From contig BTUM01000011.1 in assembly GCA_045863235.1 (NCBI GenBank), positions 32,001 through 96,000 of the forward strand: DNA of 64,000 nt. Reading direction: 5' to 3'. A program made the position numbers. Positions 30,001 through 36,000 of this stretch are shown here, piece after piece. Origin of the DNA: Candidatus Xenobia bacterium. Its GTDB lineage: Bacteria; Vulcanimicrobiota; Xenobia; Xenobiales; QWHO01. How positions within the stretch are numbered: the first letter of the stretch is position 1; each line of letters opens with the position of its first letter.

Positions 30001-33000
30001 CGAGCGGAGAAGCTTGCGCAACAGTGCCCTGCGCCGCTGGGTGGACCAGGCGCGTCGAGAGCTTGGCGAGAGACGGCAGCGTCGCAAGATTCCCCGCCCT
30101 CTGCGAGCGCCCCGAAGCTATCTGTTGAGACTCCAGGCGGTGGAGCACTGGGCTCAGGAGGAGCTGGCCAACCTGAGCCAGGCTCTCGATCTCCTGGAGG
30201 CCTACTGCCGGGACTCGAAACCCGAGCGACTGGGGCTGGCGCGACGGCACTTCGACCTGGCCGTACGCGACTTCGAGCAGTACCGGACGGTGCTGATGGA
30301 CCTCTGCTCGGGCCCGGGCTGCTACGTGGCCGCCTGATATGGCGGAATCAGGTCACGTTTTCTCCGACGGCCCACCTGGTCTGCAGACGCTCCTGGTGCC
30401 GCAAGACCGCAGACGTTGGAGGATGAAGGCCGCACCGGGACAAAGAGTACAAGCTGGATGAGAAAGCTTCCCGGCCGAGGTTACTCGGCCGACTTCTGGA
30501 AGGCCTGCGTGATGAACCTGCTCTGCATGACGGGGCAGGCGGTCATGTTCTTGCTGACGCTCTACTTCACTCACGCCGGAATGACCCGCTGGCAGGTGGG
30601 CACGACCGATGCCGTTTTCTGGATCATCTCGGTCTTGATCCAGCCCTGGCTGGGCCGGCGCCTCGACCGCTGGGGGAGGCGCGTCTTCTTCATCTGGGGC
30701 TCGTACCTGATGGTGGCCTCGATTCTGTGCTACATCTACCTGCCCGTGAGCCTGCCCCTGATGCTGCTGGTGCGCACCCTGCACGGCCTGGGCTTCTCCT
30801 TCTTTTTCACCTCCACCTGGACCTGGGTCTCCGACCAGGCCCCTCCTCAGAAATTGACCGAGATGCTGGGCATCTTTGGGGTGTCGGGCCTGCTGGCCGG
30901 GGCTTGCGGTCCGGTGCTGGCCGAGCAACTGAAGAACTACGGAGGTTTTCCGGCTGTCTTCTGGTCCGCCGCCGGCTTGATGCTGGCGGGTGCCCTGCTC
31001 TCCCACCTGGTGCACGAGCCGAAGGTGGTACCGCTGCTCAACGACCGCCGCAACTTCGGCTTTCTCCGCATGGCTTTCGCGGCCCGCATGCGCGGTTTGA
31101 CCCTGGCCGCCGTCGCCATGGGCATGGCGATCGGCAGCGTCTTCTGCTTCATCGCTCCCTACATCGAGGCCAAGAAGCTCACAGGAATCAGCTACGTCTT
31201 CGTGTGCTACACCGTGGCCGCCGTGCTGACCCGGGTCTTCTCTGGCAAGCTGGCCACCCGGCTGGGCGCCTCCGGCACCATTCCGCTGGCCCTGCTGATG
31301 CAGGGGGGATCGCTGATCCTCTTCAGCTTTCTCAGCCCCACCGGTTGGCGGGCCCTGCCCCTGATGCTGGGCGCGGGGGCCGGGGCCGGTCTGTCCTACG
31401 GCATGATCTATCCCGCCCTTTCCACTCTGGCGGTCGAGCGCTCGGGCAGCCAGCGGGGCCTGGGGATGAGCGTGGTGGCCTGTTTTGGCGATCTGGGGAG
31501 CGGAATTGGCGCACTGGGAGCCGGCGTTATCGCTCACTTTTTCCGCGACGACTGGATGTGGGTGAGCATCGGGGTCGTGGTGGCCGCCATCGCGGTTCTC
31601 TTTATCTTGCTCGAAGGCCAGTGGCGCACCCGGCGACGCAAGCGCAGCCGCAGCTTGCAGCCTGCCCTGCGGCTGGTGGGCGAGCAGTTGTCGGGGTAGG
31701 GTTTTTCTCTTTCGAGGCGAACCCCAGGTGATGCTGCGCTCGGCATTCGAGCTTCTGGTCCGGCCCACCCACCCCCTGAAGCTTCACTTCTACATCGTCA
31801 CGGGCTGTACCAGCGCCAATCTGCTGCTGGGTCTGCTGGCCCTGCTGGCGGTCATGGCCGGCTTTCCCGGAGTGGCCGCCTGGTGCCTTCTGGTGTGCGT
31901 GGTGCTCGATGCTGCCGACGGGGCCCTGGCCAAGTTCTGGAACGTGGCCACTCCTTTCGGTGCCCAGCTCGACTCGCTGGCCGACATGACCTCGTTCATC
32001 GTGGCCGGCTCGGTGCTGGCCTTCAGCTGGTTGGCTCCGCATGTGGCCCTGCCCCTGATCGGGGCGGCCAGCGGCCTGTGGCTCCTGACCGGAGCCTACC
32101 GCCTGGCCCGCTTCAACGTGACCGCCCCCGGACCGTATTTCACCGGCATCCCCACCACTTTCGTAACGGCGGTGCTCTCAGGCACCTACCTGATCGCTCC
32201 CCACCTGACGCCCGTCTGGGGTGTGGCCCTGGTGGTCACGCTCTCGGTGCTGATGGTCAGTGTGTTTCCTTACCCGAAGCGTTGCCAGCTCAAGAAGGTG
32301 CCCATCTGGCTCTGGATCACGGTGGCTTCCGGCGGCGTGGTCGACTTCCACCGCACCCTGTCGCTGGTGGCCCTGGCCTACGTGCTCAGTGGCCCGCTGA
32401 TCTGGGTCGCTCGGAAATATAGCGGGCGATGGGAGTCAACCCACCCACCACACGATCCCCCGGCTTGACCAGCACCTCCACCTGCCCGGCTTGCAGATAG
32501 ACGTCGGTGCGCGAGCCGAAGCGGATCAGCCCGTAGCGCTCACCCTGGGCGAGCAGATCCCCCACCTGATACCAGTTGACGATGCGGCGGGCCAGTACCC
32601 CCACGCGCTGGGCCACGGCACAACGACCGTGCAGGCCTTCGAGGACCGTGAAGAGGCTGTGGTTGTGCTCGGCCACCGGTCGGAATGCGGGTGCGTGGCC
32701 CCCTGAGCGGCTGAAGATGTCCACCACCTTGCCGGCGATGGGGGCCCGGTTGATGTGCACGTCGTGCACCCCCAGGAAGCTCGAGATGCGCAACCACTCC
32801 CCCTCTCCCAGGCGGGCGTCGGTCAGCCTCTCGATGGCCAGCACCTTGCCGTCGCAGGCCGAGTAGGCCAGCTCGGTATCCAGCCGCACCTCGCGGGCCG
32901 GGTCGCGTAGGAAGGCGCTGAAGGCCGTGGCCGCCGCCAGGGGTAGGGCGGACAGCGGAAGGCGCATCGACTTCAAGAGCGCTGAGGCTGCGGTCAGGAT

Positions 33001-36000
33001 GGCCGAGCCCTTGACCGCCTCGCGACTGAGCCCCCAGCCAAAGGGCAGGGCCACCCGGTGGCGGTCCTCCAGGGGGGCCAGGGAGAGCGCGCGCGAGGGT
33101 GGGCCCGAGGTGAAGCGCAGGTGTCGGATCCAGGCAGGAGGCAGGTTCCGCACCACGGTGCGCCGCGCGATCTGGTATTGCGAAAGATACTCGCTGATGA
33201 CCCGATCCACGGCCCGGAAGCGCTCGGGGTACAGAGGCCCCATCAGGTGCTTGCGCAAACCCCGCAGGTAGGCATACTCAATGTAGCTCAGGATGCCGCC
33301 CGGCTTGAGCAACCGCCGGCAGCGCTCGAAGATGGCGCGCACCAGGTCGGGGGGGAGGATGGTGAAGGGGATGGAGCAGAGGATGTAGTCGTACTCCCCT
33401 TCTCCTTCCAACTCGCTGGCACTGACCGCTTGCAGAGTGATGCGCCCCCGCAGGGCCAGGAAGGCCGGCTCGGTCTCGATGCGGCGCTGCAGGAACTGCA
33501 CGAAACCGGGATGGATCTCGCACAGTACCAGCTCGTCGTGGGGCCCGATACACGGCAGGATGTGGGTGGTGATGGCGCCCGTGCCGGCTCCCAGCTCCAG
33601 CACCTTCTTCGGGGTACGATGGCGGGCGCACTCTTCCGCCATCGCTCGAGCGGCGTAGCCCGAGGTGGGCGCGATGGCGCCGATGCTTACCTTGCCCCCG
33701 TTCTGGACCTGGTTGAGAAAGTGCAGGGTCTGGTTCATGGTCGAAAAGGGGGGGTTCTCGATGCGCCGGGCGGGGTCCTGTGCGAGCGGGGCCCTCATCT
33801 GGCCGGTCAGTAGAACACCGTGCGCGTCCGGTGGTAAGGTTTCTCGCCCGGCCAGGGGCGCTGTCCCTCGTTCCACAAAAACCAGTCGATCTCGTAGGCG
33901 CACAGATCCATCGCCCGGCGCAGCTCCTCCACGGCCCAGATCATGGCCGCGCGGATCTCCACTTCCATCGGGTGGCCGGCCGGGATCTCGCGGCGGTTGT
34001 CCACCAGCCCGGCCAACTCGTCGGAGTAGACCAGCCCGCCCAGGGTGCGCAGAATCTGGGGGATCTTGTAGTCGGCGAAGGCGGTGAGCTGCTCGAGCCC
34101 GGTCAAAGCCCCCGGGCCCTGGCCCTGGAAGGTGCCGAACAGGTCCACGGCCAGGATCTGGGCCCGCTTCAAGAACCGCACCTCCGCCCCGTCGTAAGTG
34201 CAGACGTCGCGGAACGAGCTCAGCTCGCGTTCCACCAGTCGCACCAGCTCCACTGCAGAGCCCCCGGCCGCCTCCACCATGCGCTCGAACCGCCCTCCCC
34301 AGCGCTGGGAAAGGACCTGGCCGACCTCGCGGGCGTTGGCTACCCGCTCGTTCAGCATAGGAATCTCGCCCCGCCCGCGCAGCAGGTGGGCCATCTGCTC
34401 GCGGCTGACCTTAGCCAGCCAACCGGCCTCGAGCAGGGGAGCGCCTTCTTCCACGGCGCGGCGCAGAGCCACCGACAGGGCCTTGTAGCCATTGAAGCTC
34501 TGGCCCTGGTACTCCACCTCCCAGCGGGGCTGGTCGGGATCGGCCCAGAAGCAGAAGTTCAGCGCGTCCAGCACCAGCACGTAGTTGGCGTCGGCGTAGT
34601 GAATGGCGCTGTCCCATCCGGGCACGCCGAAGCCCGACTCCTTCCAGCGCTTCGCCAGGTCTTGCAAGACCCCGCTCTCGAGACGCACGTGGCGGGCCTT
34701 TTCGACGACGGTCAGGGTGGTTTCCAGCACTCCGAGGCTCATGGGCGGGATCATCGGGATGGCTGAACCGATCTCCTGCGCCGAAGGACCCCCCCGCTCA
34801 GGCGGGGAACCACGCCCCGCCATGCTGACCCTGCAAGATCGACGCGACGCTCTGGCCCAGTGGGCCTTCGATACCCGACCCATCCTGGGCCGTTTCCACC
34901 TCTGGCTGGAGGACGTGGAGACGGTGTGGACCCGGGGGCGCCCCACCCCGGACGACCCGCGCGAGATGTCCTTCATCACCGGGCGCATCGAGCGCTCGTT
35001 GGCGATGACGGTGGCCGTCACGGCCCTGGGCACCCGCCTCTTCGGTCGCTTCGGCGAGGGCGCCGGGCAGGACAAGGCCGGGCTCAACCTGGTCAAGAAG
35101 GAGGCCGACGCCATCTCGGCCTACGCCATGAGCGAGAGTCTGTGGTATCTCACCCGCCACCTGCCCGAGAACCACGCCATCATGGTCTGCCTGGGCGAGG
35201 GCCTGATGCCCAAGGGGGGCGAGACGCCCGAGATGGGCTCGAACCCCAACCTCGGATTCGGGCGCGTCTATGCTCGCCCCGAGGTCGCCCGCTGGCTCGA
35301 CGACCGGGTGGTGCGCCTGCTCAACGACCCGAGCTACGGCTGGGATGGCTTTTATGGAGAGATCAAGCGCTCGGGCCTGACCGTCTGGGGGGCGGCCATC
35401 GACACCCTGGAGAACACCTCGCGCTTTGCCCTGGGTCGCGAGTCGGGCACCATGACGGTGCTGCACGTGTTCAACCAGCCTCTTCACATCCTGCGCCCCT
35501 ACGAGGGCTACATGGGCACCCTGATCCTGCCGCGCCAGGTAGTCGACCGGGCGGCCGAGCAGGCCATTCTGGTGGACTACCGCACCCCCCGCGCCCGGGT
35601 GATGGAGGCCATCGAGCTGGCCTATCCGGGCATTCGGCGCGAGCACGTGCACGTCTGGACGCTGGGCGGCAAGAGCCGGGCCAGGCGCCTTTCGGGCCTG
35701 TGGGAGAGCTGGCGCGAGCTGGGCGTGCACCTGGTGGAGGAGGGCTGGAAGCTGCCCTCGGGGATGGAAGCCTTTACCGAGTCGGGGACCTACGGCCCCA
35801 CTTACCAGGTGGGAACCTGGCAGGACGAGTCAGGCGCCACGCACCTGTTCCTGTGCGACGGCTACGCCGCCTCGGCCGAGGCGGTGCAGGCTGCCAGCCT
35901 GGCTCCCAAGCTGGGTCTGGAGGCCTCGCTCTGCGTTTTTACGTCTGCCTTCGAGCTGCCCTATGACAGGGAGTTGCACGTGATGCACCTGGGCCACGAC

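Follow-up and report, generated by a model that had tools for sequence, protein, structure and literature searches.

The 64,000-nt window analysed here encodes a protein in which an S-type phospholipid N-methyltransferase (Pmt) is joined to a short-type phosphatidylserine decarboxylase (Psd), and which, judged by its sequence, is likely a membrane enzyme with two activities on aminophospholipid head groups, taking phosphatidylserine (PS) to phosphatidylethanolamine (PE) and on to methylated PE. The relevant features, given as positions in the window with residues counted from the ATG at 33798, are:

32386..33738, minus strand: Pmt-Psd fusion gene, 450 aa from the ATG at 33738; an in-frame ATG at 33798 adds 20 aa
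33112..33738, minus strand: S-type phospholipid N-methyltransferase domain, residues 21-229, opening with an amphipathic helix (20-33)
33664..33681, minus strand: GAIAPT motif, residues 40-45, equivalent to G31-T36 of Agrobacterium tumefaciens PmtA (AtPmtA) by alignment to 9ko3
33577..33597, minus strand: SAM-binding ELGAGTG, residues 68-74
33274..33282, minus strand: I173-E174-Y175, pocket-size residue and predicted catalytic Tyr (AtPmtA I159, Y161)
33136..33147, minus strand: NLPP motif, residues 218-221, aligned to AtPmtA NIPP
32911..33024, minus strand: helical hairpin, likely membrane anchor, residues 259-296 (modelled as helices 259-277 and 284-296)
32413..32910, minus strand: short-type Psd core, residues 297-462, with D316, D346 and H348
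32512..32520, minus strand: predicted FGS self-cleavage site, cut between G428 and S429, S429 becoming the pyruvoyl group
31731..32468, plus strand: pssA-like CDP-alcohol phosphatidyltransferase gene, convergent with the fusion; PF01066 above cut-off
32386..32468: tail-to-tail overlap of the fusion and pssA-like coding sequences, 83 nt

The minus-strand frame from 33798 to 32386 holds 470 open codons with both domains in one frame; since homologues align from Met21, 33738 is a likelier start than 33798. Pfam places a methyltransferase domain at residues 66-170 and PS_Dcarbxylase at 292-456. In NCBIfam the protein falls short of the cut-off of each model that it matches, namely OlsG (5.4e-14, residues 24-173), PmtA (3.8e-11, residues 22-109) and, over 259-464, those for Psd. 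The open frame and these domains bear out the first-pass annotation, which had described a PmtA/OlsG-like methyltransferase fused to Psd, and its 120 listed homologues do carry both domains, covering 90-98% of the query. An assembly or frame artefact was rejected, the frame being open in 33 of the 40 genomes of the order. RNA-library contigs from two studies (X1 record 6, X2 record 12) bridge the domain junction, although DNA is possible in such libraries. A scan of genome contigs with a single protein as query returned 2 loci only. The AlphaFold2 model of the fusion reaches a pLDDT of 91.8 and a pTM of 0.89, with residues 1-12 below 50. No description of a Pmt-Psd fusion was found in the literature searched.

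The closest solved relative of the methyltransferase half is AtPmtA (9ko3), which ranks first when the family profile is compared with PDB sequences (1e-12). In a structure search with VIA it is tied for the top (Z 17.2, rmsd 2.5, 157 aligned residues) with the highest identity among 50 rows, 27%, but rows no more than 1 Z apart count as tied and the fold search fails to separate it from unrelated methyltransferases. Methyltransferase-domain matches took up the whole of the Foldseek list and of both VIA lists, and structural comparison thus bears on this half alone. Residue by residue, T36, E58/G60/G62/T63, E84, F89, I159, Y161 and NxPP of AtPmtA all have conserved counterparts in the fusion. 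The class I Rossmann fold is accompanied by a (D/E)xGxGxG SAM motif (E68-G70-G72-G74) and an acidic ribose-binding residue (E94); E68, G70, G72, T73 and G74 are invariant over 121 family rows, P44 of GAIAPT is present in all of them and T45 in 119. NLPP is kept in 121 of 121 intact rows, in 96 of 122 actinobacterial ones and in 10 of 12 decayed copies from the order. I173 and Y175, reached from the aligned pair P130/P144 at a constant offset of 14 with no gaps, occupy the positions of the pocket Ile/Phe159 and the catalytic Tyr161 of PmtA, whose functions are those given for AtPmtA in PMC12139422; position 173 is Ile in 100 rows and Leu in 21, and Y175 is kept in 116 of 121. Helix 20-33, with a hydrophobic moment of 0.39 (mean 0.41 over 121 rows) and an invariant F27, corresponds to the N-terminal amphipathic helix of PmtA and is predicted to bind the membrane. 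The PmtA equivalog NF045881 scores 42.8 bits against a cut-off of 250, so that the fusion would work like PmtA without belonging to that equivalog. The fused domain is the sole S-type Pmt of the genome, and among R-type models nothing came near its cut-off (best 54 against 390 bits). Three PEMT-family matches turned up as well.

The OlsG model NF041658, at 52.4 bits against a cut-off of 350, scores slightly above the PmtA model for the fusion and also outscores it for most of the 29 stand-alone relatives scanned, as it would if the domain were an ornithine-lipid N-methyltransferase that became fused to Psd by chance. We regard this as very improbable. In Singulisphaera acidiphila, olsG sits between olsH and olsI (PMC12493201), and genes of the GH3 family, to which OlsH belongs, do occur in 16 of the 40 order genomes; 13 of these 16 fall in f2, however, and neither the source genome (97.6% complete) nor the other four f1 genomes gave a GH3 match. 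The lone GNAT5 match is weak, comes from a protein of 570 aa whose tail resembles isopropylmalate synthase, and is read as neither OlsB nor OlsF. Ornithine-lipid genes (olsBA, olsF, olsHI) were found neither in the genome nor adjoining the fusion, and none appeared among 138 neighbours scanned.

The decarboxylase half matches PF02666 with 109 bits against a cut-off of 22. D316, D346 and H348, mapped through the family profile to D90, D142 and H144 of Escherichia coli Psd, complete with G428-S429 the D/D-H-S triad and GS cleavage site (D90/D142-H144-S254 in E. coli). D316 and H348 are present in 121 of 121 rows and D346 in 111, while G428, S429, R430 and D432 are invariant in the family; an LGST cleavage motif has been described for Psd (PMC7952604). 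Residues 259-296, whose second helix has a mean hydrophobicity of 0.62, likely form a membrane anchor by analogy with E. coli Psd (PMC7952604). That this is the only Psd of the genome, as first reported, agrees with a sole PF02666 match and with purpose-built profiles, and the fusion family provides the only Psd in 31 of the 35 order genomes that have one.

The tail-to-tail arrangement with pssA also stands, the two genes being convergent with an 83-nt overlap. No terminator-like site was seen between them, and scans for promoters and terminators scored no higher than shuffled sequence. The product of 31731-32468 is called PssA-like from model ranking and context: TIGR00473 gives 87.2 bits against a cut-off of 107, the pgsA model 19.8 and the choline-synthase models less than 30. 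A pssA gene adjoins the fusion in all 19 intact loci of the order and in none of 11 decayed ones, and unfused pmt, psd and pssA genes cluster together in loci L099, L114, L115, L118 and L119, joined in L099 by a diacylglycerol kinase gene. Both Psd and pssA fall below equivalog cut-offs, archaetidylserine models score about equally, and some Psd-fold enzymes accept tryptophan (PsiD is a weak match in profile comparison). The pair might accordingly act on another amino-alcohol head group or a soluble amine, be it a non-PS product of PssA, an ether lipid, or an amino acid decarboxylated in PsiD-like fashion and then methylated. We consider this improbable, given that the fusion family is so often the only Psd of its genome, that the same family supplies the annotated Psd of Micromonospora, a PE maker, and that apart from pssA no biosynthetic neighbour is conserved at fusion loci.

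For the preferred route from PS to methylated PE, we infer cleavage, both activities, the end product and any hand-over of PE from the architecture, the residues, the predicted fold and the gene context. PssA would supply PS. Self-cleavage of the fusion at G428/S429 would yield a short pyruvoyl alpha chain of 42 aa and leave the methyltransferase on the beta chain, while the amphipathic helix at the N-terminus and the hairpin would hold the enzyme at the inner face of the membrane. The Psd half would decarboxylate PS to PE, part of which the Pmt half would N-methylate using SAM; decarboxylation would have to precede methylation because the pyruvoyl Schiff base requires a primary amine. The end product is probably dimethyl-PE (DMPE) or phosphatidylcholine (PC). 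Provided that the domain is active, Ile at the pocket position tips the balance slightly towards DMPE or PC over monomethyl-PE (MMPE) only, by an Ile/Phe rule that comes from proteobacterial enzymes. A complex prediction with the two domains cut apart scored 0.25 against a mark of 0.32.

The proposal that one protein leads from PS to methylated PE or PC is supported for this protein by its residue matches with AtPmtA and E. coli Psd, by the fold match and by the gene context, and fails as chemistry common to the order. The fusion is indeed full-length in 33 of 40 genomes and typical of the order as an architecture, but only 19 copies are intact and 14 of the 33 carry a decayed methyltransferase lacking the SAM-binding motifs (12 of the 14 were read directly). 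The f4 and f5 genomes, listed with Psd alone, do have it unfused, but in 3 of 4 a Pmt-like gene of its own also lies no more than about 1 kb from psd. These operons were ruled out as direct ancestor of the fusion: their Pmt and Psd group with a second fusion type, P0159. A separate S-type Pmt is present in 12 of the 14 decayed genomes against none of the 21 in f1 and f2; within the order, decay is confined to the family that carries it, a pattern of redundancy that speaks for methylation by the intact domain but represents one lineage with no independent cases. Kallotenue papyrolyticum encodes an intact fusion, and the literature search yielded neither activity nor lipid data on Kallotenue or any other organism that has the intact fusion. 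Type P0159 carries a Pmt of another clade, and the methyltransferase tree suggests that Pmt and Psd were fused at least twice, independently: a single origin of both types is ruled out on that tree (40 rows, AU p ~1e-52), whereas the Psd tree (57 rows) does not reject it (p 0.09).

Dead methyltransferase domains also form the N-terminus of the annotated Psd of Micromonospora, Asanoa, Plantactinospora, Actinocatenispora, Stackebrandtia, Cryptosporangium and Fodinicola; Micromonosporaceae are reported to have PE and to lack PC (PMC11960110, PMC5754459). Neither this large dead-domain branch in Micromonosporales nor the second fusion type figured in the first-pass annotation. An Atlas search with the actinobacterial N-domain returned methyltransferase clusters only at scores below 0.9, and is taken as a lead. 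Catalysis was lost at least twice, a single origin of all dead domains being ruled out (AU p 0.005) on a tree of 57 of 84 rows, the others having been dropped as long or fragmentary (5 rows) or in thinning (22 rows). Dead copies are predicted to fold as a complete methyltransferase domain, and in genus g5, the sole basis of these values (14 and 17 of 36 pairs usable), dN/dS is 0.039 for the dead domain and 0.047 for the Psd core, indicating purifying selection. Because the domain stays under strong selection without its catalytic motifs, persistence alone is no proof of methylation. It could then be that even the intact N-terminal domain binds SAM/SAH or merely folds on Psd, stabilising, anchoring or regulating the decarboxylase, with methyl transfer absent or minor. 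The retained dead copies favour this, as does the position of AtPmtA D106, which is Ser126 here and, mapped by motif alone, S in 68, D in 48 and N in 4 of 121 rows. The published mutants disagree on how essential D106 is, D106A being inactive (PMC12139422) and D106N wild-type-like in vivo (PMC13669648). We nevertheless find a purely structural role unlikely: ExGxGxG is kept in all 121 intact-type rows and the catalytic Tyr in 116, among them residues on the substrate side for which a scaffold would have no use, and stand-alone Psd of the same family functions without the domain in many genomes. A broader scenario, possible though rather doubtful, would combine both roles: the intact fusion would lead from PS to PC within a single polypeptide, its decarboxylase passing PE on to its methyltransferase, and the methyltransferase domain would in addition serve Psd in a non-catalytic way (in folding, cleavage, docking to the membrane or lipid sensing) and so persist as a pseudoenzyme subunit of the PE-making enzyme after independent loss of catalysis in Micromonosporales and small-genome members of the order.

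Among known systems, OlsG of S. acidiphila belongs to the same broad S-type clan and gives the domain its top NCBIfam score, but only 52 of 350 bits, and the fusion has no olsH/olsI neighbours and no ornithine-lipid synthase found in its genome. AtPmtA (S-type, PDB 9KO3) shares the fold, the amphipathic N-helix, GAxxPT, ExGxGTG and counterparts of E84, F89, I159, Y161 and NxPP; it differs in being free rather than Psd-fused, at 27% identity, with D106 in place of Ser, and the fusion has about 19 additional residues ahead of the last strands and lies far below the family cut-off. Short-type Psd (NCBIfam PRK05305 group; mechanism from E. coli Psd) has the same D-D-H triad, GS site, hydrophobic N-terminal helices and adjoining pssA, whereas in the fusion the part destined to become the beta chain carries a methyltransferase of 210 aa, pssA is convergent instead of co-directional and the score lies below the cut-off of every Psd equivalog model. 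Micromonospora-type Psd belongs to the same fusion family over its whole length (hhalign 100%, 405 columns) and has a convergent pssA in 7 of 10 such loci, but its methyltransferase motifs are gone (ExGxGxG 0/122) and its N-domain has no Pfam annotation. From the fusion, methylated PE or PC is to be expected in two groups whose lipids have barely been studied, one class of Vulcanimicrobiota and some of the Chloroflexota, where a single gene that databases call plain Psd would provide the route from PS to PC. It also explains the 180 unannotated residues that open the Psd of Micromonospora and its relatives as a dead methyltransferase, which makes that Psd a cultured model for a lipid-enzyme pseudo-domain and the intact and dead forms a natural pair with which to probe the role of the domain.

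The minus-strand frame 33798-32386 is open over 470 codons and joins an S-type phospholipid N-methyltransferase (Pmt) domain to a phosphatidylserine decarboxylase (Psd); residues are counted from the ATG at 33798.

31731-32468, plus strand: pssA-like gene, convergent with the fusion gene and overlapping it by 83 nt
Residues 66-170 of the fusion: Pfam methyltransferase
Residues 292-456 of the fusion: Pfam PS_Dcarbxylase

OlsG (5.4e-14), PmtA (3.8e-11) and eleven Psd models of NCBIfam also match, every one under its cut-off. The fusion is the sole S-type Pmt-like gene and the only Psd of the genome; the domain content, the single Psd and the tail-to-tail position with pssA described in the first-pass annotation are all borne out. 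Because the closest homologue among the matches listed has 450 aa and homologue alignments begin at Met21, translation more likely starts at the ATG at 33738. Among these matches, the nearest relatives with a correct label are named Vulcanimicrobiota or Eremiobacterota, one protein from the same class bears the name Candidatus Xenobia, and a 97% identical record labelled Burkholderiales probably carries a wrong name.

A Queuosine salvage protein gene (33807-34820, minus strand) lies directly upstream in the same orientation, 68 nt away from the ATG at 33738; it is also close to the fusion in one genome of the same genus (locus L129), but not in more distant ones. The 601-aa protein encoded at 34822-36624 (plus strand) has no sequence match in Pfam, NCBIfam or PDB; with Atlas matches to hypothetical-protein clusters (0.98) and an FBPase_glpX cluster (0.92), it is possibly a long, diverged GlpX-like phosphatase. 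A SAM-dependent carboxyl methyltransferase (39360-40331, plus strand; PF03492, the plant SABATH family) adjoins an M28 peptidase gene. Outside the window, the same genome encodes a 570-aa protein with a weak match to a GNAT5-type acyltransferase (L134:1393-3105), the rest of which reads, from its sequence, like an isopropylmalate-synthase-type barrel; frames of 541-599 aa with the same weak match occur in five more genomes of the order.

The best solved relative of a profile of 121 fusions is Agrobacterium tumefaciens PmtA (AtPmtA, PDB 9ko3; 1e-12, the next one 1e-8). The AlphaFold2 model of the fusion (pLDDT 91.8, pTM 0.89) matches 9ko3 with Z 17.2 and rmsd 2.5 over 157 residues, joint top of the 50 rows of the fold comparison and, at 27%, the highest identity among them. 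In the alignment, AtPmtA T36, E58/G60/G62/T63/G64, E84, F89, A128, P130 and N185 correspond to T45, E68/G70/G72/T73/G74, E94, F99, S142, P144 and N218 of the fusion, and gap-free extension of offset 14 pairs I159 with I173 and Y161 with Y175. PMC12139422 demonstrates the importance of E84, D106 and Y161; the D106 position holds Ser126 here (S 68 and D 48 across the 121 fused rows), which counts against a PmtA-like reading, although D106N is wild-type-like in vivo in PMC13669648. At residue 159, PMC12139422 gives Ile for enzymes reaching DMPE or PC and Phe for MMPE makers. This pocket site is I in 100 and L in 21 of the fused rows, 116 of which retain the Tyr of Y161; among 86 kin that are unfused or fragmentary, the counts are F 53, Y 7, I 13 and 13 other or unread, and several of those with Ile look like pieces of fusions. 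It is very improbable that the substrate is instead an ornithine lipid: the OlsG score slightly exceeds that of PmtA and 16 of 40 order genomes have GH3 genes, but this genome has no GH3 match, its one weak GNAT5 match is read as non-Ols, the 138 neighbours scanned include no ornithine-lipid gene of this sort, and olsG of S. acidiphila, according to PMC12493201, sits inside an olsHI operon.

Across the order Xenobiales, 33 of 40 genomes have a full-length match to the fusion, three a partial one (G004, G015, G039) and four none, and the fusion is the sole Psd in 31 of the 35 genomes having any. The earlier count of 33 stands, but the Pmt domain keeps its SAM-binding motif (ExGxGxG) in 19 and is decayed in 14, from genera g5, g7 and g8 with genomes of 1.9-3.5 Mb. 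Decayed copies start without the first helix or GAxxPT and lack ExGxGxG and IEY (12 of 14 read); their sole ExGxGxG match sits inside an insertion. The reported adjacency of pssA applies to intact loci, with a convergent pssA within 1.5 kb at 19 of 19, but not to decayed ones, where it is missing at 11 of 11 examined (three end early at contig ends); 13 of the 14 genomes carry pssA at another site. Of the same 14 genomes, 12 have a separate S-type Pmt, as do all five other genomes of family f3 but none of the 21 in families f1 and f2. Families f4 and f5, said to have Psd alone, do lack the fusion, but separate pmt and psd genes adjoin in three of four same-class genomes, as in two others outside the order; none of the 261 phylum genomes sampled outside the order has the fusion.

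Two genomes, G006 and G017 (97% and 90% completeness), have neither a Psd nor a pssA of this kind and may have lost PE synthesis by this route. Two stand-alone Pmt-like genes lie in tandem in G030 (L126:4129-5416), and contig G012:C45 carries the methyltransferase part of the fusion once more, here ending in a stop. At L099:506-3624, diacylglycerol kinase, Pmt, psd and pssA form a co-directional unfused run, whose Pmt belongs to a sister clade with Phe at the pocket site.

Farther afield, including Chloroflexota, intact forms bear names such as Kallotenue papyrolyticum, Ca. Viridilinea mediisalina, Roseiflexaceae, Caldilineaceae and Anaerolineae. Among the best 150 matches of a 50%-identity search, 14 clusters are intact and full-length (13 of this type and the outlier P0157); of about 15 further long Psd clusters, P0159, P0171 and P0188 form another intact type, while the remainder, read directly, are decayed. 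In Micromonospora, Asanoa, Plantactinospora, Actinocatenispora, Stackebrandtia, Cryptosporangium and Fodinicola, the protein annotated as Psd is of the decayed form, with PF02666 as the sole domain on record. The N-domain of this form matches a profile built from 86 methyltransferases, most of them stand-alone (99.5%, E 1e-22; 0.3% against Psd as control), and has a predicted methyltransferase fold (9ko3, Z 14.8, rmsd 2.9, 156 aligned), with ExGxGxG in 0 and GSRxD in 122 of 122 rows. PE without PC is what one would expect where Psd is live and its Pmt dead, and passages of PMC11960110 and PMC5754459 list just that for Micromonospora and Verrucosispora, the Psd genes being read from other records. 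Of 10 metagenome loci with the decayed form, 7 have a convergent pssA. Five actinobacterial-type loci (L038, L040, L043, L044, L047) have PspC-domain envelope-stress genes upstream of the dead-domain Psd on the same strand, and tandem NUDIX genes past pssA.

In quick-mode, unrooted trees, the main fusions form one group by methyltransferase (support 98) and, intact and dead together, fall on the same side of a branch whose support is a modest 85 in the Psd tree (84 rows). There, the dead copies of the order are the sister group of intact f3 copies (97), and two proteins with an intact domain fall among actinobacterial-type dead ones; that the dead state arose only once was rejected (p 0.005). 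The further fusions P0159, P0171, P0188 and P0157 have different methyltransferase clades and short linkers; the first three group with f4/f5 operon genes in the methyltransferase tree, and P0159 clusters with these unfused genes in both. The methyltransferase tree rejects one origin of both fusion types, but the Psd tree does not (p 0.09). In genus g5, the median dN/dS of the dead domain, 0.039, is close to that of the Psd core, 0.047 (14 and 17 of 36 pairs were usable), so the dead domain is maintained rather than decaying. Such retention would suit a purely structural role of the methyltransferase domain, which is nevertheless improbable given the substrate-side residues kept by the intact group.

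For the decarboxylase half, PMC7952604 describes D90/D142-H144-S254 of E. coli Psd and its Schiff base with PS; D90, D142 and H144 align to D316, D346 and H348 in the family profile, and G428-S429 is unchanged throughout the aligned fused proteins. Helices 259-277 and 284-296 are predicted ahead of the Psd core, and self-cleavage would keep the methyltransferase on the beta chain. The fusion is not described in the open-access literature surveyed as listings and abstract starts, subscription papers being outside its scope.

Each half belongs to an enzyme type already known, and enzymes of successive pathway steps are often fused, so that this protein represents a new form of the PssA-Psd-Pmt route; what takes it beyond a routine fusion is that the joining and the death of the methyltransferase each happened more than once, and that a cultured group still keeps the dead domain.
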